Below are positions 2,564 to 50,524 of a DNA stretch of 64,000 nucleotides, one piece after another (the stretch's first letter is position 1; each line of letters begins with the position of its first letter). Both the position numbers and the translations under genes were made by a program. This DNA comes from Candidatus Parcubacteria bacterium. GTDB taxonomy: Bacteria; Patescibacteriota; Minisyncoccia; JACPXH01. Below the pieces are notes generated by a model. That model was not told the DNA's origin. It saw only the letters and a list, made by a program, of their open reading frames with translations, and made no database searches. The stretch is taken from positions 150,461 to 214,460 of the forward strand of contig JACPXH010000007.1 in the NCBI GenBank assembly GCA_016196625.1, read 5' to 3'.

Positions 2564-2702
2564 GGAGTAATCGCGAATATACGAATTGTTGCAAATATAC
2601 AAATTACGGGATTTAGAGTAATCGCTAATATACGAATGTACACAAATATACAAATCGCCGCATTCGTATATTATTTCAGATTTGTATATTCGCGATTACT
2701 CC
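2564..2702. promoter_or_regulatory. Iteron-like AT-rich array occupying the whole rpsF-ssb intergenic space
   Basis: Four direct copies of the 11-mer AATATAC(G/A)AAT and two inverted copies ATT(C/T)GTATATT. Three copies of GTAATCGC. Exact 19-bp outer inverted repeat GGAGTAATCGCGAATATAC / GTATATTCGCGATTACTCC. Confidence 0.5.
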
Positions 2703-3353: not shown

Positions 3354-3389
3354 CCTCCGCTACAATGTATCGATACATTGTAGCGGAGG
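3354..3389. repeat. Perfect 36-bp palindrome CCTCCGCTACAATGTATCGATACATTGTAGCGGAGG (family copy 1)
   Basis: Exact reverse-complement symmetry, checked base by base. The 28-bp core is identical to those at 50002-50031 and 50525-50560. Confidence 0.9.
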
Positions 3390-4500: not shown

Positions 4501-5763
4501 ATGAAGCTGCGTGCCCAAATCGTTTTTGGTCTAGTGGGTGTCATGTGGCTCGTGTTGGCGCAGCCAGCGCCTGGATTTGCCCGGGCATGGTACTACCCCA
4601 TGGATGCGCACGAGGCGCGGGCCTATCTCAAGGGGTTTGGTCAGCTCATTGATACTGTCTTCTATGAAGGGCAGGAAGAGCTCTTTCCATTCAACCGTTT
4701 CTACGGCTATCATGCGGGCGTAGACTTGGAGGTGTCTCCGTCTGAATTGAGCACGCGCGTGCCGGTCTATGCCGTGACCTCGGGCACGATTTCGTACGTC
4801 GGCTCCCTAGCTGGCTACGGCGGTGTCATTCTCCTGCGATTGGACGGTGAGGCTACGACGGCGCTGTACGGGCATGTAAAGATCACCGACCTGCCCTACC
4901 GCGTTGGCGACCAGGTGAGCGCGGGGAGCGTTCTCGCCCACCTCGGTGATGCTTTCAGCGCTGAAACGTCCCGCGAGCGCAAACACTTGCATTTCGCGAT
5001 CTACCGCGGCACGGATCAGTACTTTCGCGGCCATGAATCCACGCCAGAGCAGCTCTCTGCAAGGTGGGAAGATCCGCTGGCGTACCTGCTCGAGCACGGC
5101 GCCGTCTCACCCCGCCCCGCAGCCCCAGTCGCCACGAGCACTCCGCCGTTGGAAAATGGTCAGCCTATCTTATATAATTATAATGGCAGACACGTTCCCA
5201 TGAATCGCACCATCATTTTTGTTATTGCTGGGGGTTTAGCATTGCTTGGCCTGGGCGTGGTCGCGTACCGGCAGGCGCGGTCTCCAGAGACCCCTCTGTC
5301 TGTTCCAGTGCCTGCGTCAGCGCCGGCCCCCGTACCCGCCCCGCCCACTGTCGAACCCGCTGCCGAAGTCGATGAGGCGGCCGCGTTCCTCATTTATACG
5401 AATGGCCTCAAACGGAGCTTTGCCGCGCCCATGTACCACCGGCGTTCTCCGGATGCGTACCTCGAGGCGAGTCAGCCCGCCATAGTTCGCGTCAAGAAAC
5501 GCGGCGTGACTTGGGATGAATTTTTCAAGACGCTGCCGTTTCGGCTCACGGGCGAGTGCCTCACTACCGGCACGGGCGACACCTTCTGTAGCGGCGGTGA
5601 GGGCGAGCTAAAATTCTATCTCAACGGCGTTCGCGTGGCTGACCTCCTCGATCGGCAGATTCATGATGGCGATCGGGCTTTAATCTCTTACGGTGTTGAC
5701 GGCGAAGCCCAGATCCAGAAACAATTCAGTCAAGTGCCTGATCCTCGGAGCCTGACCGATTGA
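4501..5763 (+). CDS. M23-family (LytM-like) metallopeptidase with a signal peptide and a C-terminal transmembrane segment plus extra domain
   Basis: M23 signature FYGYHAGVDL...YGHV...HLHFAI. Hydrophobic N-terminus. Pro/Ala-rich linker and a TM helix near residue 235. Confidence 0.75.
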   Translation: MKLRAQIVFGLVGVMWLVLAQPAPGFARAWYYPMDAHEARAYLKGFGQLIDTVFYEGQEELFPFNRFYGYHAGVDLEVSPSELSTRVPVYAVTSGTISYVGSLAGYGGVILLRLDGEATTALYGHVKITDLPYRVGDQVSAGSVLAHLGDAFSAETSRERKHLHFAIYRGTDQYFRGHESTPEQLSARWEDPLAYLLEHGAVSPRPAAPVATSTPPLENGQPILYNYNGRHVPMNRTIIFVIAGGLALLGLGVVAYRQARSPETPLSVPVPASAPAPVPAPPTVEPAAEVDEAAAFLIYTNGLKRSFAAPMYHRRSPDAYLEASQPAIVRVKKRGVTWDEFFKTLPFRLTGECLTTGTGDTFCSGGEGELKFYLNGVRVADLLDRQIHDGDRALISYGVDGEAQIQKQFSQVPDPRSLTD

Positions 5764-7112
5764 CTGTGACGAGACTCAATCTATCAATTTTCCACGCCTA
5801 CGACATCCGGGGCAGGTATCCGGATGAGTTGAACGAAGAAGCGGCTGGAGAGATCGGCCGGGCGGTGAGTGAGATGGCGCGGCAATTCGAGCCCGGCCCG
5901 GTTCTGGTGGCCCGCGACGGCAGAATCTCCTCGCCGCAGATTGCCGCTGCGGTGATGCGTGGCCTTGTTGCCGGCGGCAGCCGCGTGGTTGACATGGGTG
6001 TTGCGACCACGCCACTTTTGTATTTCATTGCGGCTCGGCACGAGGTGTCGGCCGGGGTCATGGTAACGGCGTCGCACAGCCCGCCGGAATACAACGGTCT
6101 CAAGTTCGTCCGTCGGGGTTCAGTATCGTTCCCGGAGTTCGGCGGGTTGGATGAGCTTCGGCAGGTACTCACGCGGGGTCTGCCCGAACCACGCGCAGGC
6201 GGAGCGATCGAGCAGGCCGACTACTCCGACGAATACGTCGCGTTCCTCGTCGAGCATGCACCCGCGGGGCAGTTCCACGTTGCGATTGACTCCGGGAATG
6301 GCGCAGCAGGCGTTATCCTGCCCAAGCTTCTGGGTCGCTTGCCGAACGTCGTTGCTGAACGGCTCAACTTCGCACTCGATGGTTCGTTCCCCGGCCGCGG
6401 GCCAAACCCATTAAAGGAGGGTGCGCTTCAAGGGTTGCAACAGGTTGTTCGAAGCAGCGGCTGCCAATTGGGCGTTGCTTTTGATGGCGACGGCGATCGG
6501 GCGCTATTTGTGGATGAATCTGGCGTTACCATACATCCAGACTTCATTACCGCCCTCCTCGGCCGGGCGCAGCTTGCGAAGCAGAAGGGTGCGGTCGTCT
6601 ATGATATTCGCTCCAGCAAGATCGTGCCGGAGACGATTCGGCTGGCCGGCGGAGAGCCAGTCGTAAGCCCCATCGGGTACACGTTCATCAAGCAGGCGTT
6701 GCGCGAGCAGAGAGGGATTTTCGGCGGGGAGCGCTCGGGCCACTACTACTTTCCCGAGATGCAGTATATTGATTCGGGGTTGTTCGCGTTTCTGCAGCTG
6801 CTCAAGGCGCTGGCGCGGGAGGGCAAGCCGCTTTCTCAACTCATCCTGCCGCTTCAGAAGTATGTTCAGTCGGGTGAGCTCAATTTCCATGTTGCCGATC
6901 CCGCCGCTACGATTGAAAAAATCGCCGAGCATTACGTTGACGTAAAGCAATCGCGGCTCGACGGGCTCACCGTAGAATATCCGGAGTGGTGGTTTAACCT
7001 GCGGCCATCAAACACCGAACCGCTGGTGCGGCTTAATGTGGAAGCGAATGATTCCGTGACGCTTGCTTCTCGGCAGGCGGAGCTGACCGCGCTTATCAAC
7101 GGCCGTTCCTGA
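5760..7112 (+). CDS. Phosphoglucomutase/phosphomannomutase-family mutase (GlmM/ManB-like)
   Basis: Active-site loop TASHSPPEYNGLKF, metal-binding FDGDGDR, and the N-terminal AYDIRG motif. The TTG at 5760 overlaps the upstream stop; a GTG at 5766 is an alternative start. Confidence 0.85.
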   Translation: MTVTRLNLSIFHAYDIRGRYPDELNEEAAGEIGRAVSEMARQFEPGPVLVARDGRISSPQIAAAVMRGLVAGGSRVVDMGVATTPLLYFIAARHEVSAGVMVTASHSPPEYNGLKFVRRGSVSFPEFGGLDELRQVLTRGLPEPRAGGAIEQADYSDEYVAFLVEHAPAGQFHVAIDSGNGAAGVILPKLLGRLPNVVAERLNFALDGSFPGRGPNPLKEGALQGLQQVVRSSGCQLGVAFDGDGDRALFVDESGVTIHPDFITALLGRAQLAKQKGAVVYDIRSSKIVPETIRLAGGEPVVSPIGYTFIKQALREQRGIFGGERSGHYYFPEMQYIDSGLFAFLQLLKALAREGKPLSQLILPLQKYVQSGELNFHVADPAATIEKIAEHYVDVKQSRLDGLTVEYPEWWFNLRPSNTEPLVRLNVEANDSVTLASRQAELTALINGRS

Positions 7113-7184: not shown

Positions 7185-7922
7185 TTAAAGAATCGTCCGT
7201 CCTCCATCCACCGCAATGCATTGACCGGTGATGGCGTCGGTTTCGAGCAGGAATTTTACTGTCTTGGCGATTTCCTCTGCGCCGATCCAGCGCTTGAGGA
7301 GCGTGTCTTTGGCGGCTGCTTCAATTTCTTTTTGGGACATACCGGGCGGCGGCTCAATCGGCCCGGGGGCGATCGCGTTGACCAGAATGTGCGGCGCGCG
7401 AGTGCGCGCAAGATAGCGGGTGAGCGCGATCACCGCGCCTTTTGAAGGGAGGTACGATTCCCACCCGCGCTCGGCGTAGGGTTTGATCGCGGCTACGTCG
7501 GCAAAGAGTACCACGCGGCCTCCGCCCTGCTCGACCATGCCGGGTTCAAGCGCATCCACGAGGCGCGCCGCTCCTTTTACGTGGACGTCGTAGAACTTCT
7601 GCCAGTCTTCGTCGGTCGGATTGATGATGGGTGTGGTGTTGTAGAGCGAGGCCATGTAGACAAGTGCGGCCGGCTCTCCCAGCTCATGTGAGACGGTCTT
7701 GACGATGCGTTCAATGTCAGCTGAATCGGTGGTGTCGCCCTGCACCGTGATCGCCCGTACGTTAAACTCCGCGCGCACAGATTCGGCCGTCTCTTCGGCC
7801 GCATCCTTCGAGCCGCGAAAGGTGAGTGCGATGTGCATGTCCGTTTCAGCAAGCGCGCGCGCCACCACGCGGCCCACCCGAGCCGCGCCGGTAATCAGGA
7901 CAGTTTTGCCTTTGAGGCCCAT
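7185..7922 (-). CDS. Short-chain dehydrogenase/reductase (SDR) family oxidoreductase
   Basis: Rossmann motif TGAARVGRVVA at the N-terminus, and a YxxxK-type catalytic region (SYLPSKGAV). Confidence 0.8.
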   Translation of the reverse strand: MGLKGKTVLITGAARVGRVVARALAETDMHIALTFRGSKDAAEETAESVRAEFNVRAITVQGDTTDSADIERIVKTVSHELGEPAALVYMASLYNTTPIINPTDEDWQKFYDVHVKGAARLVDALEPGMVEQGGGRVVLFADVAAIKPYAERGWESYLPSKGAVIALTRYLARTRAPHILVNAIAPGPIEPPPGMSQKEIEAAAKDTLLKRWIGAEEIAKTVKFLLETDAITGQCIAVDGGRTIL

Positions 7923-9398: not shown

Positions 9399-9399
9399 A

Positions 9400-9517
9400 T
9401 CCTAAAAGTTCAAATTTCAAAATCCAAATTTCAAATCAAGTTCAAAGCTTAAAATCCAAAACAGTTTTGGCCTTTGGATTTGATTTGAACTTTGAGCTTT
9501 GGCATTTGGATTTATTG
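9400..9517. repeat. AT-rich word-repeat hairpin element (CAAAT / TTCAAA family copy 1)
   Basis: Left arm TTCAAATTTCAAAATCCAAATTTCAAATCAAGTTCAAAG and an imperfect inverted partner GGCCTTTGGATTTGATTTGAACTTTGAGCTTTGGCATTTGGATTT. The element fills the trpS / tRNA-binding-protein intergenic space. Confidence 0.5.
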
Positions 9518-9850
9518 TTAGGACAACACAGTCCCATTGAGCACTTCCCGATCCGGGTGTAGCAACACTGGCTTTCCATCCTCATTTGCACATACGATCA
9601 TCCCTTGGCTCTCAAGTCCCATGAATTGTCGTGATTCGAGGTTCGCGAGCACCGGGACTTGCTTGCCGATGAGCGTCGATGGTTCGTACCACTTTGCGAT
9701 GCCCGCGATGATTTGGCGTGGTCCGCCAGCTGGCGGGGCGCCGAGATCAACCATGAGCTTGAGCAGTTTTTCTGAACCCTCAATGCGCTCGGCTGCGGTG
9801 ATGGTGCCGATGCGGAGGTCGAGCTTTTTGAAATCGTCAATCGTAATCAT
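9518..9850 (-). CDS. tRNA-binding protein (CsaA / Trbp111 / MetRS C-terminal-like OB fold)
   Basis: 110 aa with DLRIGTI...AE and ...LKL..VDLG...RQI..G; the family assignment is by resemblance. Confidence 0.75.
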   Translation of the reverse strand: MITIDDFKKLDLRIGTITAAERIEGSEKLLKLMVDLGAPPAGGPRQIIAGIAKWYEPSTLIGKQVPVLANLESRQFMGLESQGMIVCANEDGKPVLLHPDREVLNGTVLS

Positions 9851-9852
9851 AC

Positions 9853-10040
9853 GAGAAGTTCAAATGCCAAAATCCTAATACCAAATCAAGTTCAAAGTGA
9901 CACCGCGTGTCATCCTGAGCCGAGAGGCGAAGGATCTCGAGATCCTTCGGTCGCTGCGCTTCCTCAGGATGACAACCGAGTTGTATTTTGGGTTTTGGGT
10001 TTGATTTGTCATTTGAGCTTTGACATTTGACATTTCTGTT
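9853..10040. repeat. Composite intergenic element: CAAAT-word arms (family copy 2) enclosing a GC-rich palindromic element GTCATCCTGAG...CTCAGGATGAC (9909-9973)
   Basis: Left arm AGTTCAAATGCCAAAATCCTAATACCAAATCAAGTTCAAAG. Right arm TTTTGGGTTTTGGGTTTGATTTGTCATTTGAGCTTTGACATTTGACATTT. The inner element has 11-bp terminal inverted repeats and an internal GATCTCGAGATC palindrome. Confidence 0.55.
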
Positions 10041-10084
10041 AGACGAGATTGCGGAGTTTATCCCGAGCGGAGCGAGGGACCTCG

Positions 10085-15672: not shown

Positions 15673-15891
15673 CTATCTGAAAAAGAGCTGTATGGCAGCA
15701 AGGCCGAGGAAGAGGGTCGTGAGTACAATCGTGCTGATGAAGAGAATCTTTTCGAGGCCGCGCTTGGAGCGGTAAATGTTTCCTTCGCCGCCAAAGGTTG
15801 CCGAAAGTCCGGTGCCGCGCTGCTGGAGCAAGACCGTTGCGATGAGCAAGATCGAGACAATGAGTTGAATGATGCCGATGAGGGGGTTCAT
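15673..15891 (-). CDS. secG: Preprotein translocase subunit SecG
   Basis: 72 aa, two TM helices, motif LLQQRGTGLSATFGG. Confidence 0.8.
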   Translation of the reverse strand: MNPLIGIIQLIVSILLIATVLLQQRGTGLSATFGGEGNIYRSKRGLEKILFISTIVLTTLFLGLAAIQLFFR

Positions 15892-15899
15892 GTTTCTAG

Positions 15900-16046
15900 G
15901 AGCGTGGCGGAGGTCTGTTCGGCGAGCGCTCGTTCGTCCAGCGACTCACTCGCTCTGTCCTCGCCGGTCGCCGAGCACTCAACGTGTTGAGTGCTCGGAC
16001 CGTGCCGACCGGCTGCGGATGTCGTCTCAAGACCTCCGCCACGCTC
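15900..16046 (+). other. Structured element, copy A (candidate ncRNA or cis-regulatory leader). It fills the intergenic space between the DUF360 gene and secG. Strand is undetermined.
   Basis: 17-bp closing stem GAGCGTGGCGGAGGTCT / AGACCTCCGCCACGCTC. Conserved block TCGTCCAGCGACTC. An 11-bp hairpin GAGCACTCAAC / GTTGAGTGCTC. Conserved tail CTCGGACCGTGCCGACCGGCTGCGGATGTCG. A second copy is at 22986-23223. Confidence 0.4.
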
Positions 16047-16050: not shown

Positions 16051-16413
16051 CTATTCGGTTTCGAGGCGGTCTTTCGGAAACGCCATCGTTATAAATAAGT
16101 TCGTGAGCCAGAGGATGATTACCGTCCAGACGTACGTCCAGACGCCGGAGATTGAAAGCTGCGGCAAGGCGAGATCCAATAGCCACAGCACCACTACGCT
16201 GATAATAATATTGAAGAGCCCAAAAGTTAGCAGAATCAGCGGGAAGGAGAATATTTTTAAGACGGGCTTTGCAAAAGCCTGGATGATACCGAGCACGATT
16301 GCGGCCAGCAGAATTGTACCAAATCCGCCGGCGAGTTGGAAGTTTGGCGCGAGGAGCTCGCGCGCAATCCAGAGGCCAATGCCGTTGGCGGCGATTTGAA
16401 CGATGATGCGCAT
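16051..16413 (-). CDS. DUF360 / phage-holin-4-like four-TM membrane protein
   Basis: PLILLTFGLFNIIISVVVLWLL...GVWTYVWTVIILWLTNLF matches the DUF360 consensus pattern. Confidence 0.65.
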   Translation of the reverse strand: MRIIVQIAANGIGLWIARELLAPNFQLAGGFGTILLAAIVLGIIQAFAKPVLKIFSFPLILLTFGLFNIIISVVVLWLLDLALPQLSISGVWTYVWTVIILWLTNLFITMAFPKDRLETE

Positions 16414-19423: not shown

Positions 19424-19696
19424 ATGGGAAAGCTTAACACCGAGCTTGCGAAGCTGCGTGAGGCGCACGTCCGGGCGACGAGGGCGATTGAAGCCGCCGA
19501 GGCGCCAGTTGATGTTGGTCGTGATAGAGACGCAGGGCTTGTCCCCGCGCTCCATCCAGACGATCAAACACAGATCGTCCTTTCCGGAGGAGTGATTGCC
19601 AATTTGGTTGCATCCTCCATCGGTTATGGTTCCGGCGATCCCACAGACGAGGCAGACGAGGCGCCCTTCGCCTCAGACGACGTGCCCTTCGCTTAA
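19424..19696 (+). CDS. Hypothetical small acidic protein
   Basis: The 90-aa ORF is followed 19 bp downstream by an intrinsic terminator. Confidence 0.35.
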   Translation: MGKLNTELAKLREAHVRATRAIEAAEAPVDVGRDRDAGLVPALHPDDQTQIVLSGGVIANLVASSIGYGSGDPTDEADEAPFASDDVPFA

Positions 19697-19714
19697 CCAA
19701 AAGGTAGTCTCGTT

Positions 19715-19774
19715 GCGCCCCGTCTCGAGTCCGTCAGCTGGCGGATTGAGGGACGGGGCGCTTCTCTTTTTCTT
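19715..19774 (+). terminator. Intrinsic terminator
   Basis: 10-bp stem GCGCCCCGTC / GACGGGGCGC followed by TTCTCTTTTTCTT. Confidence 0.55.
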
Positions 19775-19801
19775 GCCATCTATTGACAGACGGCGTATAA
19801 T
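19773..19801 (+). promoter_or_regulatory. Putative sigma-70-type promoter for uvrA
   Basis: TTGCCA (19773-19778), 17-bp spacer, TATAAT (19796-19801). Confidence 0.45.
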
Positions 19802-19919
19802 TTTCATTCACCCCGTTAGAACGCCACCCATTCTGTCGGCGGCTAGAGAGGGGAATAACCATGGGAGTATGATGTTTCTATCGGCGGGTCGCAAAGCGTC
19901 CGCTCTAACGGGGTTCACC

Positions 19920-22913
19920 ATGCCGAGGGCAAAGAAAAAATCTACTGGGGGCGGCCCCATAGCATCGCCGATGCGGCGAGCTACGAGGCAAGGCGCGATT
20001 CGTATTCGAGGTGCACGAGTGCACAATCTCAAAAACATTGACGTGGACATCCCGCGCAATAAACTCGTCGTGATCACGGGTTTATCGGGATCAGGCAAGT
20101 CGTCCCTTGCGTTTGATACCCTCTACGCCGAAGGCCAGCGCCGGTACGTGGAATCACTCTCGGCCTACGCGCGCCAGTTCTTGGGTGTGATGGACAAGCC
20201 CGACGTGGATACAATCGAGGGGCTGTCCCCCGCTATTTCCATTGATCAAAAAAGTGTCTCCAAAAATCCGCGCTCCACGGTTGGTACGATTACCGAAGTG
20301 ATGGACTATCTGCGGTTGCTCTACGCCCGGGTGGGGAAGCCCCACTGCCCCAAGTGCGGACGCGCCGTAACGCGCCAGACCGTAACCCAAATTACCGATC
20401 AGGTCTTGAAGCTTCCGAAAACTTCGCGCGCGCTCATCTTGGCGCCCATGGTCAAAGATCGCAAAGGCGAGCACCGGCAGCTCTTGGTCGACTTGGAGCG
20501 CCGCGGCTTTAGCCGTGTGCTCATCAACGGCGAAGTCTTGCGTATTGAGGATGCCAAGCGTCTTATCTTTGATAAGCACACCAAGCACACGATTGACGTG
20601 GTCGTAGATCGTATCGAGATTGGAGCAGACGTTGACCGGCCGCGCGTGGCTGATTCGGTGGAGATCGCGCTGCGGCTTGGCGACGGCATGATGGCTGTGT
20701 CTGTGGTTGAAGACGCGACTAGGCTGCAGCTGCAGTCGCCGCGCCCGCCCAAAGTTGGCACCGCCAAGTCGCTCAAAGCCGGAGGCAGCCCTGGAGACCT
20801 CATTTTCTCCGAGCACTTCGCCTGCCAGCACTGCAACGTTAACCTCCCCGAGATAGAGCCGCGTACATTCTCGTTTAATAGCCCCCACGGCGCCTGCCCC
20901 ACCTGCACGGGTTTGGGAAGCTTGCTTAAGGTTGATCCCAAGCTGGTGTTTCCCAACCCACGTCTGACACTCGCCGAGGGTGCGATCCGTCCGTGGGCCT
21001 CGGCTTCGCACCGCGTGGGCCGGCAGTCGTGGTATTGGTGGATTTTGGACGAGCTGTCCAAGAAACACGGCTTTTCACTCTCGACGCCCGTGAAGGATCT
21101 GTCCAAGAAAATCATTGACCTGATTTTGTATGGTGAGCAGGGCGCTCTGATGCTCCGCTCAGGCGATTGGGAAGGCCGGACTGAATTTGAGGGCGTCATT
21201 CCCAACCTCGAGCGACGCTGGAAAGAAAGCGATTCGGAGTTCACGCGTGGCGAGATTGAACGCTATATGGTGATCACGAAATGCCACGCGTGTCTTGGCA
21301 AGCGTCTCCGGCCCGAAGCCTTGGCGGTGAAGGTTGTTGGTCAGACGATTGATCGGGTACTTAACTCGCCGGTGAGCGCATCAGCGACACTGTTCCGTTC
21401 GTGGCTTACGGATGGTGTATTTACCGTGGCCGAGCGCACGATTGCTACACCTCTCCTCAAAGAGATTTTGAACCGGCTCCAGTTTCTCCTTGAGGTGGGG
21501 CTCGATTACCTCACGCTTCATCGCGAGTCCACAACGCTTTCCGGTGGCGAAGGCCAGCGCATCAGGCTCGCCACACAAATCGGCTCGCAGCTGACCGGAG
21601 TGCTCTACATATTAGACGAACCTTCGGTGGGGCTGCATGCGCGCGATCAAGCTCGGCTCATCGCGACCTTGAAAGAACTTCGAGATTTGGGTAACACCGT
21701 GGTCGTGGTGGAGCACGATCCGCAGACGATCGAAGCGGCGGACTGGGTAGTGGACATCGGCCCGGGCGCGGGCAAGCACGGCGGGCGGGTGGTCTTTACC
21801 GGAACGCCTCGCGAGCTCAAGCGTTCAAAGACTTTAACCGGCGAGTATCTGTCCGGGCGCAAGCGCGTGGGCGCGCCCACGCCCGCAGAGCGCGGGCCAC
21901 ACGACGATGGCAAACGCCTTACGATCCGCGGCGCATCTGAACACAATCTGAAAAACATTGACGTTGCGATACCGCTCGGCAAGACGGTGTGCATCACGGG
22001 TGTGTCTGGCTCTGGCAAATCAACTTTGATGAACGACATCCTGGGGCAAGCGCTGCTCAACCGGTTCTACCACGCGCACACGCAGCCCGGCGCGCATGAA
22101 GCAATCGAAGGTTTCGAACAGCTTGATAAGGTGGTCATCGTGGATCAGTCGCCAATCGGCCGGACTCCCCGCTCAAACCCCGCCACCTACACCGGCGCTT
22201 TCGGTCCTGTCCGCGAACTATTTGCGAGAACCCAAGAAGCCCGCATGCGCGGCTACACGCCCGGGCGCTTTTCGTTTAACGTCAAAGGCGGCCGGTGCGA
22301 GACCTGCGAAGGCCAAGGGTTTAAGAGAATCGAGATGCAGTTTTTGGCAGACGTATATGTGGAGTGCGAGGATTGCCACGGAAAACGGTATAACCGTGAA
22401 GCACTTGAGGTTCAGTGGAACGGGAAGAACGTCGCCGAGGTGCTGGCCATGACGATTGAGGAAGCGCTCCAGTTTTTCAAAAACATCCCGGCAGTCAAAT
22501 CAAAAATCAAAACCATGGTGGAGGTGGGGCTCGGGTACATGCAGTTGGGCCAACCCGCGCCGTCTTTGTCTGGCGGCGAAGCCCAGCGCATTAAGTTGGC
22601 TGCCGAACTTTCGCGCCGCGCCACCGGCAAAACCTTATATATATTGGATGAGCCCACGACCGGCCTGCATTTTGATGATGTGCGTAAACTCTTGCACGTG
22701 TTGACTGAACTCGTGGCCAAGGGCAACACGGTTTTGGTGATTGAGCACAATCTTGACGTGGTCCGCTCGGCAGATTGGGTTATTGATCTTGGTCCGGAGG
22801 GCGGGGAAGATGGCGGTCGGATCGTCGCCGCCGGCACTCCAAAAGACATCGCAAAAGTGAAAGCGAGCTATACCGGGCAGTTTTTGCGACTTGCGGGTCG
22901 TGCAGGTCGTTAG
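19920..22913 (+). CDS. uvrA: Excinuclease ABC subunit A
   Basis: Two ABC ATPase modules ([14 protein letters not shown] and [13 protein letters not shown] Walker A; [12 protein letters not shown] and [12 protein letters not shown] signatures) and zinc-finger cysteines. Start at ATG 19920 (MPRAKKK). An alternative ATG 27 codons downstream (MRRATRQG) lies before the conserved [14 protein letters not shown]. The ORF is open upstream to 19596. Confidence 0.9.
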
Positions 22914-22985
22914 TCAGGTTACACGCATTTTGGACAGTTTGCCTCGGGCGTTACCTCGTTTGGACAAGTCATGCAACGTGTGGCA

Positions 22986-23223
22986 GGCGCCGCACTCCCT
23001 CAGCGATCGTTCGCTCGTCCAGCGACTCGCAATCAAGGAATGCTCCGGGGCGGCGCATTCGGCCTCGCGTCCCTCGATACAACTCGGGACAAGCTCGGCC
23101 GGCGCCGCCCGTTCGGAACCAAGCAGTTGGCTCCTCACCCTCGCTGGCGGCCGATCGCTCAACGCGTTGAGCGCTCGGACCGTGCCCGCCAGCTGCGGAT
23201 GTCGCTTCGGGAGCGACGGCGCC
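22986..23223 (+). other. Structured element, copy B, between uvrA and the three-gene operon. It is the same family as 15900-16046 with a ~110-bp insertion.
   Basis: Shares TCGTCCAGCGACTC (23015-23028), the hairpin GATCGCTCAAC / GTTGAGCGCTC with compensatory base changes relative to copy A, and the tail CTCGGACCGTGCCCGCCAGCTGCGGATGTCG. It has its own closing stem GGCGCCG...CGGCGCC. Confidence 0.4.
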
Positions 23224-23371
23224 TGACCCAATCGGTAGCAACCCTCGCCGATAGTGCGCGTCCGAAATGTGTTCGTCCCGACGCATCATTGACAAACCAT
23301 TATCGCTGTAGTTCCATTTGTTCGTGCGAGCGTTCTGTGGCCTGCAAACCGCCACAGAGGAGGACCGGGCA

Positions 23372-33328: not shown

Positions 33329-33625
33329 ATGTCCGTCAAACTCAAACCGTTGGGAGACCGGGTCGTGATTGAACCCATTACGCCCGAAGAGAAGACGAAA
33401 TCTGGTATCGTGCTGCCTGCCACGGCCGACAAAGAGCGGCCCGAGCAGGGCAAGATTATTGCCGTGGGTCCGGGTCGCATGACCGACGAAGGCAAACTCA
33501 TCCCGTGTCGCGTCAAGAAAGGCGATCGGGTGCTGTTTACCAAATATGGTCCCAACGAAGTCAAAGTGGACCGCAAAGAGTATCTGATTGCGAAAGAAGA
33601 GGATATTCTTGCAATCTTGGAGTAA
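33329..33625 (+). CDS. groES: Co-chaperonin GroES
   Basis: 98 aa with the canonical GroES sequence (KPLGDRVVIEP...GIVLPATA...GKIIAVGPG). Confidence 0.9.
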   Translation: MSVKLKPLGDRVVIEPITPEEKTKSGIVLPATADKERPEQGKIIAVGPGRMTDEGKLIPCRVKKGDRVLFTKYGPNEVKVDRKEYLIAKEEDILAILE

Positions 33626-33632
33626 AAGGTTG

Positions 33633-33736
33633 GAAGTTCAAAGCCCAAATGACAAATCAAGCTCAAAACCCAAAACGCTTTGAACTTTAAGCTTTGGATT
33701 TGATTTGAAATTTGGATTTTGTCATTTGTCATTTAA
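33633..33736. repeat. CAAAT / TTCAAA word-repeat hairpin element (family copy 3) between groES and groEL
   Basis: AAGTTCAAAGCCCAAATGACAAATCAAGCTCAAAACCCAAAAC ... TTTGAACTTTAAGCTTTGGATTTGATTTGAAATTTGGATTTTGTCATTTGTCATTT. Confidence 0.5.
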
Positions 33737-35386
<1,650 letters not shown>

Positions 35387-35402
35387 AGGTAAAACAGAGG
35401 AG

Positions 35403-35443
35403 AAAAAAGCTGCCGGACATCATCCGGCAGCTTTTGTTTTTTT
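35403..35443 (+). terminator. Intrinsic terminator after groEL
   Basis: Stem GCTGCCGGA / TCCGGCAGC with loop CATCA, followed by TTTTGTTTTTTT. Confidence 0.7.
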
Positions 35444-35669
35444 GAAAACTTGAAACTTTTCTGAAAGTGGGTTTCTGTAAACAGACAGGGATAAGCCATG
35501 TGTGAAATGAAAAACATCCTGTTGATAACTAAACTATTTTTGCACTCTTGCGGACGCGATAAATAGTGTAAAATTAGGAGTAGCGGTGTGCGCGAGTAAT
35601 ACATTTTGGCCGCCTCGTAAATTTTATCCGCCTTCGCAGAAAACCGTGGGCGTAAGCCCGCGGAACTTC

Positions 35670-37896: not shown

Positions 37897-40800
37897 TTGG
37901 TTTTCGATCTTCATATGATCCGTATCAAGCGTCCCCCCAAGGGGAAAAAGCGCGACTCGCTCACCAAGCGTCTCTTTGCCGCAGGTGCTGCAGGGGTAAC
38001 CATGTTTACCGGCGGCGTCCTTGGAGTGCGTGCGGCCGGAACAGTCAAGCCGCCCTTCGCGCAGGTGCGGCTGCGCACGGATCGCGTTTCGGGTGCAGGG
38101 CGGACGCCGGGTGAGGCTGGCGCGGGTACGAAAATTTCTACAGAGGAGGAAGCGCGCATCAAGGCTGAAACCGGTCGCTTCTTGGGCGAACTGCGCAAAG
38201 TAGCAGGGGAGACTGACAGCCAGAGTTTCTTTGCCCGGGTGCTGAACATCTCTCCGGCCGAAGCCGGGTCAGACCTCAATGCTGCGATTCAGGATTTGTA
38301 TAACTCCGGCAATTTGACCCAGGCCGTGCAGAGCGTGCTGGCCAGCGGAGCATATACCCCCGATCAGGCAGCTGCCGCCCTTCGAGAAGCTGAAACAGCG
38401 GGCGTCATCCCTGCGGGAACGACGCTTGATATCGCCGTCAACCTCGGCGCAACGCCCGAGCAGGCGGCTGCGTACGCCCAGCCCTCCTACGTGCCATCAT
38501 CTGAGGCGGATGTCTACGTTCCGCCGCCTGCAGCTGCGGTGCTTCCCGCAGCACCCGTTGCCCCGATTATCCCGCCGCCGGCTGTGGAGTCCGGACCGCC
38601 GGTTTTACCGTCCGTGCCCGCCGCGGCGCGGACCCCCGAAGTGCCACCGCTTCCACCGCCGGTCATCCGCATTGATGAAGAGAGAGGCATCGGGCATGTG
38701 GCCATGCCCGCGGCGCCGGTCGTGCCGGTTGCCCGCGAGGAGCCGACCCCGACGCCTGAACGTACGGTGCAAACCGAAGGCGGGACGTTTATCGTGACGC
38801 CAGGAGGCGCGGTGTTAGATGCAAACCGGAATCCAACCCCCTACTCCGTTGATGCAGGCGGACAAGTGAGTTATCAGGGCACGCCGGTTGGTCGGCTCGA
38901 ATTCCAGCAGCCCGGTATTGAGGAGATGCCTCGAGAAGTCTTTATCCCTACTCCACCACCAGCGCCACCGGTCCAAGCTCCAGGACCCGTCATTATCGTC
39001 CCGCCGGGCGAAAGCATAGTCGTCCCGGAGGGCGAGAGCAGATTTGTGTTAACGCCGGACATCAAGCAGGCTATCCAGGACATCTACCAGAACGAGGGCC
39101 TTGATTCACTCACCAAAGCAGTGGGCGTTCAGATCAACAAGGGCGTGGTGAGTCCGGCCGATGCGGCCCAAGCGCTGCAAGCTGCTGGCATTCCTGTTGC
39201 AGACATTGCCTACATTGCCCGAAACCTCGGGGCCACGCCCGAGCAGATCGCGGCGCTGGTGCCGTCAGCTCCGCCTCCGCCAGCTAAACTGGAAGAGCCG
39301 ACGCTTCCTCCGCCGTCCGCTGCCCCGCTTCCCAGAGGCGCCGAACCCTCCGCACCGCCGGTAGAGATCGGCCCGCCCGTCTGGCAGATTACCCATCCCA
39401 CAGTCCCGGGCCTCACTGTTGACGTTGACGCCGATGGCAACTTCCGTCTGCCTGTTGATTCTGGACTGGGCGAGTTCTCGGGCGCCTTCGGCCAAGTGAA
39501 TAAAGGTACGCTCACCTATACAGTGCGTAGCACCAGCGGCACCGAACAAAGTGGTGATCTGCGGGCTGAAGGTTGGCTCATTGCCGCCGTGACTCCCGCC
39601 TCGCCGGCCAAGCCAGCTGCGCCAGCTCCGGCCCTTCCAACCCCTGCCCCAGTCTTTACCCTCCACATTGGGGATAAAACTTTTCAGATCGACCCCGAGA
39701 CCTTAATCGTCACCAAACCAGAAAGCGACCCTAATCAGTACGTGCTCTATCCAGCTGGTACACCTGGTCAGTACATCATTACAGTGAATGGAGTCTCTAC
39801 CTTTCGGTTAGACACCGCCACCGGCAACCTCACCCAGTTCACTCCCGCTGGCGAGACCAAACCCATTGGGCGTTTTACGCCGGGTGGCGCCGCTGGTCCT
39901 GGTAATACTTTTACGTTTACCCCGAATCCCCCTGCCACTACCACCCCGACATCAACCTCGCCTGTATCATTTCCCGGCGCAACGCCAACGACGACCGTTC
40001 CCGTCATACCCAGACCAGTTCCCCCGGGCGTGATCGGACCCAGTCAACCGCACGAGCTATGGACGAACGTCGTCATTGATAACCAGCGCTATAACCTCTA
40101 TCAAGACGGTGCCGTCAATGCCGTTGATGCGGCGGGCGGAGAAGTCGCGACGCCGTATGTCATTCACTACAACGAAAACGCTCAGAAGTATGAACTCTGG
40201 CGTGCTGCCAATCACGGTGAAACGGTATTTGCGATTCTCAACCCGAGCGGTCAGCTCGAGCAAACTTTCCATCTTTTTTTCAGCCCGGGTCCCTTCGGTA
40301 CCACCCTTCGGGTCAACGATCGTCCCTACCGGATCAATGCGGATGGCACGGTGCTGAATCCGCCCGGCGACACTCAGCGGTACTTTATGGATGTACGCGG
40401 GAACATCCATCTGAACGATCAATACGGTCCCTTCCTCTACCTTATTCTTGTGGACGGTACCGTCCGCGATGCTCAACATCGAACGGTTGGACGAGTAGAA
40501 CCCAGCGGTACTTTTGTTCCGACACCGGGATCGGTTGGCGCGCCTGTACCGGCCCTTCCAACCCCTGCCCCAGTCTTTACCCTCCACATTGGGGATAAAA
40601 CTTTTCAGATCGACCCCGAGACCTTAATCGTCACCAAACCAGAAAGCGACCCTAATCAATATATGCTGTATCCAGCCGGCACACCTGGTCAGTACATCAT
40701 TACAGTGAATGGGGTCTCTACCTTTCGGTTAGACACCACCAACGGCAACCTCACCCAGTTCACCCCAGCTGGTGAGACCAAACCCATTGGGCGCTTCACG

Positions 40801-43800
40801 CCCGATGGCGCCGTGGGTCCGGGCACTACTTTCACGTTTACCCCGAGCCCCGTCGCTACCACCACGCCAACGTCGACCGCGCCGATCTCTCCTGCGTCCA
40901 CTCCCGCGCAGCCAGCTGCCGGGCCTGCCACCGTTCCCCCGGCTGCAGAAGCCGCACCTTCAGTTCCTGCCGCTACCCCCGCTCTCCCCGAGGTGCGCGT
41001 GCGTATCAACGACGCGATCTACCGGATCATGCCCGACGGCACGGTGGTGAGCCCGCCGTCTGACCCGAACACCTACTCGGTGACCCGCAACCCTGACGGC
41101 ACCGCTGCGATCAGCCGCGAAGGGCAGGTGATGTATACGGTCAACGCCCAAGGCGAAGTCCGCACTCCCGACAACCAGACAGTGGGCCAGTTTGATGTGC
41201 CCAAGGCTGAAGTCGTAACCGACTACACCGCCGGCCGAGTTGACTACTACCTGCGTAAAGCCGAGAAAGTCGGCCAAACTGATGCCGCTACGATTCGGGA
41301 GCTCGCGGACAGTGGCGTCAGTCCCACCGTGATTGCGGAGCGTGCTCTTAAAGAGTGGGGCGGAGATGCGCGGCGGGTCGCGGTGGCGGCAGCGGAAGCC
41401 GGTGCTGCGCCTCACCTGATTGCCGAGGTTTTGAAAACGAAAGAATTGAAGGTGCAAAATCCAGACGGCACGAGTCGAACCGTGGACGCTTTTACCTTGG
41501 CTTTGGAGCAAGCAGTGGGGCAGGTAGCCGCGGTGCCGGAATCAAACCAAAGGCTGCAGGGGATGGGTTCGATTGCCGATTTTCTGCGCCGCGCTGGCAT
41601 CTCGGCCCAAGAAGCCAGAGATCGGCTCAAGGCCGCTGGTTTCACTGACGATCCCACGTCCATCCTGAGCGCTGTTGGTTACAGCGCCGAGGGGCTGGCC
41701 ACCACCTTCCCCGTAACTCCGACCCAAATTCGGGCCGTCAATGTGGACGGCACGTGGCTCGCGCTCTCGCCCGATGGGACGGTCTACATTCCGCAGGCTG
41801 GCAGCGCGGCTGAGCTCAAAGTGATTGACGGTGAGACCCGGATCCTGTTCAAGGACCGCACCGGGCGCATCGTACCGCTCCCCATAGCCCGGATCGAGCA
41901 GGTTTCAGACGTAGACCTCCTGCGTTTGGCGCAAGCCAAGTTTCAGGCCCAGGGGTTGACCCGGCCTCAAGCCAATGAGCGGATTTTTCCCCTGGCGGTT
42001 GCTGCCGGTTGGAGCGATCCCGGCCGGGTTATTCGGGCTGCGCTGGAAGCCGGCTTTTCTCCGACAGACATTGTGAGCGGGCTGGCCAGCATTGACAGCG
42101 CTCGCCGCGAGAACAATCAAGAGAGCCATTATCTGGAAGAGGGGATCATGGCGGCGCTCGATGCCGCGCGAAGTCCTGAAGCGCGGCAGGCGACTGCGGA
42201 TACGATCATCGCGGCCCTGCGCGAATCCGACCTCGGTCGCGAGCGGCTCGATGAGCTTATCCAGTACCTCGCCCCGCGGCTCAACGTGCCGGAAAGTCAG
42301 CTTCGCGAGCAGTTGGGGGTTAATCAGCCTTTGTATAAAGCGGCGTTTCGTCTCGAACTGGACCTACCTCGTTATCTTCCAGAATCGCTGCGGCAATCCC
42401 AGAAGGTATTCACTGGAAGATCGCTTCGGGTTATAAGTCAAGTCCCCATACACGAATACGCCGCCACGTTGACTTCGGTTTCCACTGGTCAGCAAACAGC
42501 GCCTGCTGTTACGCGCAAAAGTTCGCACGTCATTAAAATCGCCATTCCGGCAGAACTCAGGGCTGATCAATATCAGCTTACCATTACAATTGATGGTCAG
42601 GCGCAAACATTTCCCATAGAAGTGGAGCGCCCACTCCAAAAGGCCCAAGCGCCCGTGGAGGTTGTGCCCTTGACGTCAGTCGAACAGGCTGCGATTGCGT
42701 TCAGGACCACTCTGTGCACGAATTGCGCATCTGAAGGAGTGTTTAGCGGAGATCCCAATGACGCGAATAAACTCATTCATATCAGCAATACCAGAGATTT
42801 GGTGCGATCAACTGACGGCGGTAGGTCTTGGCACGCGTTGTCGATCGATAACGCCGCACAGTATCCGCGCGCCCAGGTCTTATATGTTGGCGATCCCAAA
42901 GTAGTGAGTTTACCCGATGGTTCATTTATAATCACCAGCCTCGGTAGCGATCATAATAAGAATTTTACTTTAGGCGGATTGATATACCGAGGCACCTACA
43001 CGGGCGGGCTTAACGCCACCTTTTTTCAAGACATCCCTTCAAATTTGCCGGCGAACCAAGATATCGTTGTGGATAGACCAATTTTGGCAGTCGATCAGAG
43101 AAACTCTGCCGTATATATTGCCGTCAATGGCGCCTGGTTTGGCGAAAGAGGAGAATCCGACTTCGAACATGCAATCTACTTCTCTCAGGACGGCGGTCAA
43201 ACATTTAAGAAGGGCAGGATCGGTCATGGACTCGCAATCCACTCGATGACAGTTGGTGCCGACGGGACGCTCTACGCCGCTCGTCTCGGCGAGCCGCATG
43301 AACTGTTCCGCTTTTCTTCTCTCGACCCGGTGCGGTATGAAGTGCTACCGTTACCGGGCCGTCATCAGACCTGGGAGGGTTCGGTAAGAATATCGACCAC
43401 CAGCCGACGTGCCTGGGTTGGCTACGAAGGTCCGGAAGTCATCGCCGATACTAGCCCAACAAGTCCTCATCAAGGGCGGTTGTATGCGGTGTGGTCGCAG
43501 TCCGAGCGGGTCGTTGATGATCAAAACTTTGAGTATAAGCACTATGGGTTTAACCATGACGTATTTGTCAGTTATTCCGACGATCGAGGCGTTAGTTGGT
43601 CTCCGCCAGCGAAGGTGAACGACGATATCGGATCCGGCGATCAAGTATTCCCGTCAGCCCGACTTGACACGAACGGTGCTCTTCACGTTGCCTTCTTCGA
43701 TCACCGGAATAATCAGAGTGACGCAGTGTTCGACGTGTACTATGCGAAGTCCACCGACGGTGTGAATTTTTCCAAGAATCTTAGGTTAAACGAGGAGCCG

Positions 43801-46800
43801 ATCCCAAACGAGTATGGCGGACGGTTCCTTGGCGACTACATAGATATGGTCATGCCATATCCGGATCGTGTCTATGTCGCATATCCAGACGCGCCACTGT
43901 TTGCCAATGGTAAACGTTCAACCATGGCAACGGCCGTGAAGTTTGTGGAGATTTCCCAGGCGGCGCTTGCGCCACTCATGCCGTCGAGGGGGGCTTTCAG
44001 CCTTGATCGTTGGCGCACAGCAGGAGAACGCATAGAGACACTCCATTCGCTTCTTGTATCAGGGTGGACGCCCGCAGAAATCATCCGAGCCCTTGCCGCG
44101 GTAGACGCATCTGCCAAGGCCGCAGGCCGCGAGACTCATTACCTCGAAGAGGGGATCATGGCGGCACTGGAAGCCGCGCCAAACCCAGAAGCGCGGCAGG
44201 CGACGGCGGATACGATCATCGCGGCTCTCGGCGAAGCGGGGTTGAGCCGGGAGCAGACGCAAGAGTTGATTCGGAATCTTGCCCCGCGGCTCAACATGAC
44301 CGAAGAACAGCTGCGTAGTGCATTGGGGATCGGCCAGCTTGCGCGTCAAACCTCTCGACTCACGCGACAAATGACCCGTCAGACTCGCCCTACCGTCCCG
44401 CGCGCGACACTCGTCAAAGTAGATGAGCCGGAGTTTGCCAAGCAAGAGTTGGTGTTGCCGCCCACACTGTTGCCCGCGCCAAACTCGCGCGATGTTCAGG
44501 GCTTTTTAGGGTCAGCTTCAAGCGAGGTGGCTTTCCAGCTTGTTTCACTCATTCGCGACCGGTTCCAGCTTGGGGCAAGCGCGTCGCGCCGCGGTTCGGT
44601 TGAACTGGGCGACGAGGTTACGATTACTCTCCAAGTCAAAGGCCAAGATGTTCCGCCCGACAAATTAGTTACGTTCGACGCCCTCGTGCCTTCAAAGTTC
44701 CGGTACGTGTCCGGGTCCTTAGTGGTCAACAATGTGCCATCGTCTGATCCGGAATTCATCCTCCGCACACCCTTCGCCACCGTCGTCGACGAAGAAACGC
44801 AGGTCCTCCGGCTTGAGCACGGGGTCTGGTCTTACGGAAACACCACGCGGACGTATCGGTTCCGAATGCGCGCTGATACTATCGGCCGGCCCGGCAATTT
44901 GGACGTGAAGGCGTATCTGGACGTTGGTCCGCAGTTGGCCCAGATTGCCGGGGTGGGTCCTTTCACCACGAGCGTGCGCACGAGCGGTCCGCGGCGAGAA
45001 GCCCAGCAGACAACGGAGCGCAACGACGAATTCTCCGGTTATGCCTTTGATCAAACGTTCTCCGGCGGCCGGACGCTGGGCGAAGCTCCGCTGCCCGGGC
45101 GGGCGGGCGAGTTGGTGCCGGGTGAAGCGAATCAGTTTATGCCCGCGCAGGCGATTGAACTTTCGCCGCACGAACGCAACACCATTTCGGTTCGCTATCA
45201 TTTTACGAAACGCTCGCCGGATGCCGCCAATACCCTGCGGCTCAAATACACCGTCGAACTGCCCGGAGAGGTCGAATACCTGTGGCGGTCAGCCCGAATT
45301 GACGGGGCGTTGATTGACACCGAGCCTCTCCGGACACTCCCCGAAGAGCGTACGCCGGCCGGGACGCGACTTGTTACGATAGTGGATCGAGAGACGCCGG
45401 TTGACGAACGGCCGCACGAACTTTCGTTTCAAATTTTTACCGCGGCTGCGCCAGAAACCCAGGCGCGCGCCCCTTTGGTGACGCAGCTGTGGGTTAACGA
45501 CAAGCTGGTCCGAAAGGATCGCTGGGAGCCGATTATCATCCGGGCAGCACAGCCCGCGCCGCCGCGAGACGCCGCGCCGGCTCCGGGCGCCCCTTCGGCG
45601 CCGCCCATATCTGAACCGCCCTCTCCGCCCACCAACTGGGAGCCGCGGTACGTCAGGTTCGACTCAAGCCTTGAGTTTTCCCGGCGCGAGGTGCGGGCTG
45701 GTGAGCGGGTTGACATTACGGCGCGGCTCGAGCGGATCGATTCCGGAGGCCCCATTGAGAATTTTCAATACCTTTTGGAGCTGTCTCCGGGATTACGATT
45801 CGTCGCGGATCAGGGCGTGTCAGTTGATTCTACGCAGCGCCTCGAGCCCGAGGTTTCCGAACGGAACGGCATCCAGCGAGTACGGGTTCGCATGCGGTTT
45901 CCGGCCGGAAGTACAAGGGCTACAGGGGATGTATCAGCTGGGTTCGGGGATCGGCCGACCACGTCAATCCGTTTTACCGCGCAGGCCGCGGCGGATGTAT
46001 CGCCGGGCGAGAAACTTTTGGTGGGTAAGTTTTCCGGCGACGGGTTGCAGCTTGGGCTTGACGCCGCGAATGTCTTGGTTCGCGCGCCTGAAGTCCAGCC
46101 TCGCTTTACCGGCGAGATGTTCACGATTCCTGCGGCCGAGGCGCGGCCGGGAGAAGCACTGGCGGTACAAATCCGACTCTTTCGTACTGATGCGGCGGGT
46201 CGGGTTGGAGATGTCGTTTATGAGCTGGAAGTGCCGGCTGGATTTGAGTATGTTACCGAGTCAGGCGGAGCATCAATTGATGGTCGGTCTCTTGCGGTCA
46301 CGGTGGTGTCTCGGACCGACGGCGCGCAGGTGGTGCGGACCGATTCGTTCTTTTCTCCCGGCGGCAACAATTCCCAGGCTATTACCGTGTTCCTGCGTGC
46401 GAAGTCAGATGTTCCCGCTGGCGAGAAAACCTTTGTGGGTCGGATTTCGGTCAGAAACCGTCAGGTCCTCGAACAGCGCACGAGCGTTCAGGTGCCGGAG
46501 CTGGCAACGGTTCGGATTGACCCGTTCCTGTTCTTCTATGGAAGAGCGACGGTGGGCGATGAGTTTACTGTCTATGCCGATCTCGGTCGTCGCGATACCG
46601 GCGGGCCGATCCCGCAGGTAGATTATCGTCTCCAACTGCCTCGCGGATTCGAATTTCTCCCCAACAGGTCCGATGTGTACTTTTGGGATACGGGCCGCTC
46701 CCAACCGCTCAACGCGGGCGTCTCGGACGGGGTCGTTACGGCCACAATCGCAAACTTTCCCGCCGGGCCGGGGGGGCGCACGATTCGATTTCGACTGCGC

Positions 46801-49226: not shown

Positions 49227-49273
49227 AGATGAAGTAACGTTACTATGTATTGATATATAGTAACGTCTCATCT
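49227..49273. repeat. AT-rich imperfect inverted repeat between the giant gene and lemA
   Basis: AGATGAAGTAACGTTACTAT / ATAGTAACGTCTCATCT arms around the centre GTATTGATAT. It contains the ATGTAT half-site seen in the palindrome family. Confidence 0.4.
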
Positions 49274-50001: not shown

Positions 50002-50031
50002 GCGCTACAATGTATCGATACATTGTAGCGC
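50002..50031. repeat. Perfect 30-bp palindrome GCGCTACAATGTATCGATACATTGTAGCGC (family copy 2), 18 bp upstream of the TrpR-like gene
   Basis: Exact symmetry. Same 28-bp core as copies 1 and 3, with different but still complementary flanks. Confidence 0.9.
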
Positions 50032-50048
50032 ATAGACTTCATGCGATT

Positions 50049-50513: not shown

Positions 50514-50524
50514 TGAGACGAGTC

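Follow-up and report, generated by a model that had tools for sequence, protein, structure and literature searches.

The 64,000-nt stretch of Candidatus Parcubacteria DNA analysed here (contig JACPXH010000007.1, positions 150,461 to 214,460; hereafter the window) carries, in the spacer upstream of secG, a folded element (copy A) that is one copy of a dispersed, structured repeat family in the gene spacers of the candidate phyla radiation (CPR)/Patescibacteria. At least 17 distinct copies were collected by pattern scans and covariance models from close relatives and JGI metagenome contigs, and covariation across the family marks the element as a secondary structure under selection. The family is a modular, palindromic repeat specific to Patescibacteria, about 145 nt long in its plain form and longer where further modules are nested in it. 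On balance, and with modest confidence, we favour the explanation that it is a non-autonomous dispersed element of the ERIC or miniature inverted-repeat transposable element (MITE) kind, spread by a trans-acting enzyme or by recombination after DNA uptake.

An earlier note, made from the letters of the window alone, had described copy A as an element closed by a perfect 17-bp stem, and the two arms (GAGCGTGGCGGAGGTCT and AGACCTCCGCCACGCTC) are complementary at every position. The perfect 11-bp internal hairpin of the same note stood only in part: the two 11-mers (GAGCACTCAAC and GTTGAGTGCTC) are perfect complements but have a mere GT between them, and the true apical hairpin therefore has 12 bp (CCGAGCACUCAA / UUGAGUGCUCGG) and a 4-nt loop. 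Blocks said to recur in a second copy (copy B) do recur, a 31-nt block (CTCGGACCGTGCCGACCGGCTGCGGATGTCG) being present at 15994-16024 and, with three mismatches, at 23174-23204 (0 matches in shuffles), and the 14-mer TCGTCCAGCGACTC being exact both at 15934-15947, inside the closing stem of copy A, and at 23015 in copy B. Of the compensatory changes that had been claimed for the apical hairpin, one is a true double change (A-U to G-C) and another, G to T, destroys a pair; three further double changes between the copies lie in the helix below the hairpin (CCGGTCG/CGACCGG versus CTGGCGG/CCGCCAG). The conclusion drawn from them, selection on secondary structure, holds across the family. The closing stems of copy A (GAGCGTGGCGGAGGTCT) and copy B (CAGGCGCCGC.ACTCCC) are unrelated in sequence, in agreement with the earlier view that they are not conserved inverted repeats of the transposase-recognised type. 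Copy A has a folding energy of -90.9 kcal/mol on the + strand, compared with -60.6 +/- 4.5 for shuffles (z = -6.7), and the - strand folds equally well (-91.1 kcal/mol, z = -7.6).

The architecture is shared by all members. The closing stem P1 has about 17-26 bp, differs in sequence from locus to locus while its pairing is kept, often contains a symmetric CUCG/CUCG internal loop and is often extended by an outer helix. Inside P1, after the junction, lies a near-invariant block of 21-28 nt (CGYTCGYTCGTCCAGCGACTCRCTCRCT) containing a 5-bp hairpin, P3 (UCGYU-CGUCC-AGCGA), and this is followed by a conserved CUCRCUCRCU strand and then by a long arm (P4-P5-P6) with a 7-nt 3' bulge, ACCRUGC, in which positions A, C, C, T, G and C are invariant columns of the family alignment. 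The 3' junction strand measures 3-9 nt only. Length varies in just three places. At the tip of P6, L027/L174 have about 130 nt and L046 about 150 nt; on the strand that follows P3, copy B has about 107 nt; and the outer stem is the third.

Covariation was measured on a MAFFT alignment of 12 members that had not been fitted to the structure. Paired cells amounted to 83%, compared with 64% in shuffles and 38-46% in slid-partner controls, and changes on both sides were seen in 31 of the 40 pairs, including 18/20 in helix 1 (P1) and 7/8 in P5. The observed values were reached by none of 500 shuffles for four of the five measures and by one of 500 for the fifth. It should be noted that the invariance of P3 and the 21-nt block in these 12 members follows from the way they were picked, as the 21-mer was the scan pattern, and more generally that recruitment with exact-sequence patterns inflates the apparent conservation of the core. 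In diverged copies found without the pattern, P3 itself covaries (CCGCU/AGCGG and GCCGC/GCGGC).

A covariance-model search for homologues, as the earlier note had proposed, found further covarying members of the family. Within the window, three models run with filters off returned only copies A and B. The GTDB scan (one genome per species, 3' block pattern) gave 25 loci, 24 of which are chance matches in coding sequence; the one true extra copy (copy C, on contig L023) has closing stems like those of copy B, with compensatory changes. Scanning of the JGI metagenomes with the 5' block (CGYTCGYTCGTCCAGCGACTC, a 21-mer) also gave 25 loci. Thirteen of these match the core model at 38-68 bits and L046, with its long insert, is a fourteenth; removal of duplicate contigs and of one chimera (L038) left 10 distinct loci, and six distinct loci that carry the 21-mer but fail the model were counted as chance. 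With the family-wide model, diverged copies that do not have the exact 21-mer were recovered on contigs already known (L050 6248-6408 and L030 7750-7903), together with a variant copy D (L023 379-529) in which the ACCRUGC bulge is still present. Scores reach 153 bits in unrelated contigs. The host contigs have 34-57% GC and CPR-like gene content, and the core is kept in sequence across hosts of 34-68% GC. All relatives are metagenome-assembled fragments, model E-values are rough and genes at foreign loci were called by a longest open reading frame (ORF) heuristic.

The strict 3' pattern had no matches in JGI metagenomes or viral contigs, a 14-mer scan of viral contigs gave chance matches only and the plasmid and phage collections gave no family match. 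With Rfam 15 at gathering thresholds only tRNAs were reported in the window, L174, L178, L027 and L023, and an E-value search of the copy A region and five family members produced nothing overlapping the element, which bears out the earlier statement that it does not match RNase P, SRP, tmRNA or 6S RNA and extends it to Y RNA, ribozymes, IS605-orfB and HEARO RNAs. No description of the family turned up in the literature, which was searched by sequence words and by CPR together with repeat or RNA terms. In a separate case the 21-nt block and about six further bases stand directly 3' of a tRNA-3'-end-like sequence (GGTTCGAATCC) on a GC-rich contig unlike CPR, seen in five metagenomes (L033, L040, L041, L044 and L045); the rest of the element is missing there and the locus was treated as chance.

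The coordinates of both copies and their parts are collected in Table 1.

Table 1. Positions, in the window, of copies A and B of the repeat family and of their structural parts
Feature	Position	Strand	Remarks
Copy A, whole element	15900..16046	+ (family consensus strand)	Model R3 120.9 bits, E 5e-32
P1 closing stem 5' arm, copy A	15900..15916	+	Pairs with 16030-16046, 17/17
P1 closing stem 3' arm, copy A	16030..16046	+	End 4 nt short of holin-like stop codon
Near-invariant 21-nt block CGCTCGTTCGTCCAGCGACTC, copy A	15927..15947	+	Includes hairpin P3
Hairpin P3, copy A	TCGTT 15930-15934, loop CGTCC, AGCGA 15940-15944	+	
Conserved pyrimidine-rich single strand from P3 to long arm, copy A	15948..15955	+	Family CUCRCUCRCU
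Long arm, copy A	15956..16021	+	Contains P4, P5, P6
P4, copy A	15956-15960 with 16017-16021	+	
P5, copy A	15962-15970 with 16006-16015	+	
P6, copy A	15971-15982 with 15987-15998	+	
Conserved 7-nt 3' bulge ACCGTGC, copy A	15999..16005	+	Family consensus ACCRUGC
Copy B	22982..23228 (core 23002-23206)	+	R1 99.6 bits; R3 62.8 bits
Hairpin module nested in copy B, 3' of conserved block	23029..23135	+	Not in copies A, C
Window segment missing in relative L028, between uvrA and next gene	22914..23288	+	Contains copy B

Copy A occupies the 159-nt gap between a holin-like gene (16051-16413, -) and secG (15673-15891, -), its stem reaching to within 4 nt of the holin-like stop codon and 8 nt of the secG start codon. 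Copy B, whose start is 69 nt 3' of the uvrA stop codon (22913; uvrA itself is at 19596-22913, +), has the architecture of copy A plus a nested module of about 107 nt. This module is also found free-standing at L023 2128-2197, upstream of tRNA-Arg(GCG), with 90% identity over 71 nt, and it is a separate small repeat family. The segment that contains copy B has in addition an outer helix (22923-22935 with 23260-23272) and folds as a single rod (about 22923-23272). Both copies lie in a housekeeping region (recA, S6, ychF, RNase J, PGI, secG, uvrC, uvrA, groES/EL, secA, dnaG and rpoD), and the UvrA, solute-binding protein and SecA of the window have their best matches among Parcubacteria/Patescibacteria proteins, SecA being 100% identical to a 'Candidatus Parcubacteria bacterium' protein at NCBI. 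A Pfam scan of most window ORFs of at least 90 aa turned up no transposase, reverse transcriptase or integrase.

Comparisons between loci and genomes support the ERIC/MITE-like explanation. The neighbours of the family are unrelated to one another (groEL, lysS, rsmH, a NUDIX gene, a gyrB-like gene, rpoC, dcd, pilus genes, uvrA and secG). The copy B site is empty in L028, where the uvrA 3' spacer has 77 nt and that of the window is some 375 nt longer, and the corresponding spacer of L174 has 613 nt of unrelated sequence. At the holin-secG site, L027 and L174, apparently of one species, have the element of copy A in a long-tipped version (A'), and L178 has an unrelated AT-rich palindromic element in place of it. 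The window, L027 and L178 are about equidistant (72-78% in the secG coding sequence). Copy A is nevertheless 93-94% identical between the window and L027 (126/135 nt) compared with 67-72% for the flanking holin-like and secG genes, and 16 of the 17 closing-stem positions are identical though they are free to vary in the family. Similarly, a 26-nt stretch comprising P6 and the bulge is identical in L023 and the unrelated contig L032. This identity above background points to recent shared ancestry of the copies, i.e. exchange, rather than to constraint alone. Closing-stem sequence is also common to some copies at different loci of one metagenome (L032 and L050-type; L031 and L037), and pieces of the tip insertion of L027 resemble the centre of an element in the groES-groEL spacer of L180.

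The family lodges in short spacers between housekeeping genes and is gained, lost and swapped between lineages; if the ERIC/MITE-like explanation is right, it would spread either as a non-autonomous mobile element or through recombination after DNA uptake. Copies would be co-transcribed with their neighbours as part of an operon. As a single strand the element folds such that a long closing stem joins the flanks and leads into a three-way junction of the small conserved hairpin, the pyrimidine-rich strand and the bulged long arm. The asymmetric core may be the part recognised by a factor that propagates or tolerates the element, candidates being a nuclease or transposase with strand specificity, or a host factor that binds RNA. 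A closing stem flush with stop and start codons would keep the cistrons adjacent in the folded transcript and in this way allow the insertion to be tolerated.

Several points weigh against this explanation. Copy A could have been conserved at an orthologous site in two lineages by purifying selection. No target-site duplication was demonstrated: the filled and empty sites of copy B offer only an imperfect TCGTTAG/TCATTGA, and CTCG on both flanks, considered as a duplication, was rejected as it is a symmetric internal loop in a longer stem (P0 helix; L030, L047 and L039). Neither an autonomous parent element nor a mobilising enzyme was seen in about 400 kb of Patescibacteria-type sequence. Conservation peaks in an asymmetric internal block and not at the termini, which is atypical for cut-and-paste MITEs and like a functional RNA. 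Density is low, overall about one copy per 30-50 kb in the sequence examined (two copies in the 64-kb window, three in 49 kb of the L023/L174/L180 genome and two to three additional ones over roughly 130 kb of contig flanks). Finally, L038 (720-814) and L048 (1888-2034) join the 5' half of one element type to the 3' half of another, with closing arms that are not complementary; they may be repeat-seeded assembly chimeras rather than recombinants between copies.

Among known repeats the closest parallels are the ERIC/IRU elements of the Enterobacteriaceae, which are imperfect palindromes of 127 bp with a conserved central inverted repeat. They are reportedly treated in work by Hulton from 1991, by Sharples and Lloyd from 1990 and by Wilson and Sharp from 2006. 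Both are imperfect palindromes (about 130-150 nt) that fold as long hairpins, are confined to short transcribed spacers (transcription being probable in the present case) and have low to moderate copy number; in both, sequence is well conserved across hosts while locations differ, longer variants arise by insertion at fixed internal positions (here A', copy B and L046) and the mobilising mechanism is not established. The present family, however, has no apparent sequence relationship to ERIC/IRU and belongs to another phylum, its termini are free in sequence and it has a conserved asymmetric block and a bulge in a three-way junction, so the analogy is functional only and membership is not claimed. 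With the MITEs Correia/NEMIS of Neisseria, RUP of Streptococcus and RPE of Rickettsia it shares small size, lack of coding capacity, dispersal, presence at a site in one genome and absence in another, probable co-transcription with neighbours and a long double-stranded RNA stem that is a possible RNase III substrate; RPE resembles it further in occurring in the reduced genomes of host-dependent bacteria. Unlike those MITEs it has terminal inverted repeats that are not conserved between copies A and B, no demonstrated duplication and no related transposase-bearing parent in the sequence just mentioned. A classical DDE-type MITE was rejected because the termini are not conserved, no duplication having been shown at the sites compared; dispersal and site polymorphism were both found.

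REP elements are 20-40 bp long, have a stem of 8-9 bp and a GTAG or CGTC tag that is terminal and unpaired, and occur in high copy (Di Nocera et al. 2013, PMC3733652; for REP/REPIN elements see also Bertels & Rainey 2011, PMC3116915). The present family resembles them in being extragenic palindromes, often between co-directional genes, that would plausibly form RNA hairpins, and in having stem pairing maintained by compensatory change. Membership was rejected on size (about 145 nt), branching, the missing terminal tag (CGTC occurs in the P3 loop only) and low copy (twice in 64 kb), and no RAYT transposase was found in the window by the same Pfam scan.

The rival that survives best, which we regard as possible but improbable, is a functional structured RNA in operon transcripts. 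RNase III-type cutting of the 17-26-bp stem would free a core of about 100 nt that acts in trans or in a ribonucleoprotein (RNP); alternatively, the core would be a self-processing ribozyme and the scatter of copies would reflect gene-family turnover or hitch-hiking on a mobile carrier. Covarying helices of free sequence, conserved unpaired nucleotides and length changes at helix tips and one junction are all as this rival would have it, as is a core that remains GC-rich even where the genome has 34-35% GC and the closing stems have moved toward host composition. The evidence from strands is divided. At about 12 of the 14 loci the consensus strand has the sense of the downstream gene, and P3 shows U-G on that strand in three lineages, but copy A and the rpoC copy (L032) run antisense to their neighbours, so that transcripts there would carry the reverse complement. 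Two observations go against the predictions for a consensus-strand RNA: the closing-stem mismatches on that strand (A.C 10, G.U 3) and the better folding of the reverse strand, found in 12 of 13 members. The G.U versus A.C strand test gives conflicting signals between helices. The element is, moreover, dispensable at given sites. No promoter-like or terminator-like site was detected at copy A or B, nor a U-tract 3' of the copy A stem, and from this the family is probably transcribed within the neighbouring operon. The core lies 20-46 nt from the flanking genes and the element almost fills the spacer, so the stems abut stop and start codons and leave no room for a separate transcription unit; a stand-alone non-coding RNA gene is thus unproven.

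Two known structures, 6S RNA and the retron msr-msd, have the same general outline: the 5' and 3' ends pair in a long terminal stem, the interior is asymmetric with a small hairpin, and a long hairpin forms the apex. In 6S RNA both strands of the central bubble are unpaired, with about 10-15 nt each. Here the 3' junction strand has only 3-9 nt and the 5' side forms P3, giving no two-sided bubble and no mimic of an open promoter; with no Rfam 6S match either, 6S RNA was rejected. The retron was rejected because no reverse transcriptase is adjacent at any locus and the neighbours are housekeeping genes.

Rather unlikely, in our judgement, is an element of single-stranded DNA that folds at replication and is recognised by an enzyme of the HUH/Y1 type in the style of IS200/IS605, REP-RAYT or attC; the conserved block, the bulge and the CTCG loops would then be recognition or cleavage signals. 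The asymmetric motifs, conserved extrahelical bases and free stem sequence fit this, the mismatch types unsuited to a consensus-strand RNA would no longer be a difficulty, and the CUCG/CUCG loop, which forms a tandem U.C mismatch on the consensus strand, reads on the opposite strand as a tandem G.A pair (CGAG/CGAG). Copies A and B are both on the G-rich strand despite flipped gene orientation, as a replication-linked single-strand mechanism would have it, and most other loci have the same sign of skew, but the L032 copy is on the C-rich strand and gene orientation confounds GC skew at a scale of a few kb. No HUH/Y1 transposase gene was found in the window or in the sequence of relatives examined, and the single empty-versus-filled comparison (the copy B site) had no fixed flanking tetranucleotide of the IS200/IS605 type.

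Integron attC sites and IS200/IS605 ends are single-strand hairpin recombination substrates. The family is like them in conserving structure over stem sequence, in its conserved extrahelical bases, in its variable terminal structure and in its strand asymmetry, and unlike them in having no cassette arrays and no integrase or Y1 transposase nearby. Core-site motifs, in contrast to those of attC, are not at the outer ends, and an attC site was rejected in the absence of cassette arrays or integrase.

These two rivals, functional RNA and single-stranded DNA, overlap with the ERIC/MITE-like explanation. It is a tentative suggestion of ours that the core (P3, CUCRCUCRCU and ACCRUGC) represents a new class of functional nucleic-acid structure in Patescibacteria and not inert repeat DNA, either as an excised RNA (ribozyme or RNP scaffold) or as the recognition module of a strand-specific mobilisation system.

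The earlier note had placed copy A as a candidate leader of secG, and a cis-acting secG leader or attenuator is now very improbable. Copy A does fill the spacer before secG, and L027 and L174 have retained it, but the family stands beside many unrelated genes, the second copy is 3' of uvrA, the L178 site has a different hairpin and the consensus strand is antisense to secG. Any gene-specific leader or riboswitch was likewise rejected, there being no constant gene association or orientation, and the fallback idea of the note, a REP-like structural element, has turned out closer to the evidence. An ordinary intergenic hairpin (terminator or processing stem) with chance similarity of the two copies has a negligible probability: long palindromes are abundant in the window (2564-2702, 3357-3386, 33620-33741, 35389-35451, 50002-50557 and 54626-54713), but the recurrence of the 31-nt block, the model scores in unrelated contigs, the lack of a U-tract after the stem and the family-wide conserved core all contradict it.

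Further candidates were tried and rejected. A small ORF on the reverse strand (AGGAGG-N8-ATG in some AT-rich copies) has ACG in place of the ATG in other copies; a peptide reading of the conserved block was rejected as the block is a covarying hairpin; and inspection of the alignment for a pseudoknot between bulge and junction strand gave no consistent complementarity across subgroups. Box C/D, k-turn, parS, sigma-54 promoter, boxA and attC core-site resemblances were considered too and dropped, as the motifs do not fit in order or spacing.

Patescibacteria account for a large share of bacterial diversity, and their genomes are tiny and contain hardly any non-coding DNA. In such genomes it is notable that a conserved, covarying element of 145 nt is found repeatedly in the few spacers available and is apparently exchanged between lineages. 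Small palindromic intergenic repeats are a known kind of element, but this family, its phylum and its organisation, with free termini around a near-invariant, asymmetric three-way-junction core, appear to be undescribed in Rfam and the literature searched, in which no Patescibacteria repeat or non-coding RNA family was found beyond universal RNAs and introns. If the family is selfish DNA it would be a marker of genetic exchange and spacer turnover in supposedly streamlined organisms, and a source of assembly chimeras; if it is an RNA it would be a new CPR-wide class. In either case the covariance model could be used to annotate it across public genomes.

A number of other features were seen in the window and its relatives. 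On L050, inverted diverged copies of the family (4831-4983, -, and 6248-6408, +) bracket a single gene for a 420-aa membrane protein, an arrangement that may be composite-transposon-like or a coincidence. Within the 613-nt uvrA 3' spacer of L174 (1216-1828) some 450 nt are GC-rich and non-coding, a perfect palindrome of 32 nt lies at 1784-1815, and Rfam gives no match even at E = 1. A second, AT-rich palindromic family is represented in the window at 2564-2702, beside the S6 gene, and in the holin-secG spacer of L178 (1149-1242); it has arms GGAGTAATCGCGAATATAC / GTATATTCGCGATTACTCC and an internal 51-nt direct repeat. Other AT-rich hairpin repeats of the window are common to the spacer near a tRNA synthetase gene (9399-10042) and the groES-groEL spacer (33620-33741). 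The arms of these repeats are present also in the groES-groEL spacer of L180/L181 (L180 6470-6604), around a GC-rich centre that is rich in CGCTCGCT; a hairpin of the same spacer recurs in the tip insertion of copy A'.

A perfect 30-nt palindrome (CCGCTACAATGTATCGATACATTGTAGCGG) occurs at 3357-3386, 50002-50031 and 50528-50557, with a degenerate version at 49237-49266 and a related palindrome in L174 (15982-16021). Two of its copies flank a Trp-repressor-like gene (50010-50513), which suggests that the palindrome is an operator. At 54561-54713 a tRNA-Ser(GGA) has its own 3' end repeated in inverted form directly after it, over 42 nt (54626-54667 / 54672-54713, 81% complementary); this may be a long terminator or what is left of an attachment site. 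On L023 an 82-aa ORF (7247-7495, -) lies a short way downstream of copy C and ends in ...FVQRGGE; by eye its sequence resembles the prokaryotic ubiquitin-like protein Pup, which would be unusual for Patescibacteria. The window also contains a single ORF of 3,738 aa (37897-49113) with internal repeats at 39619/40540 and 42121/44131; the counterparts of this ORF in relatives (3,936 aa and 4,017 aa) lie directly after secA.

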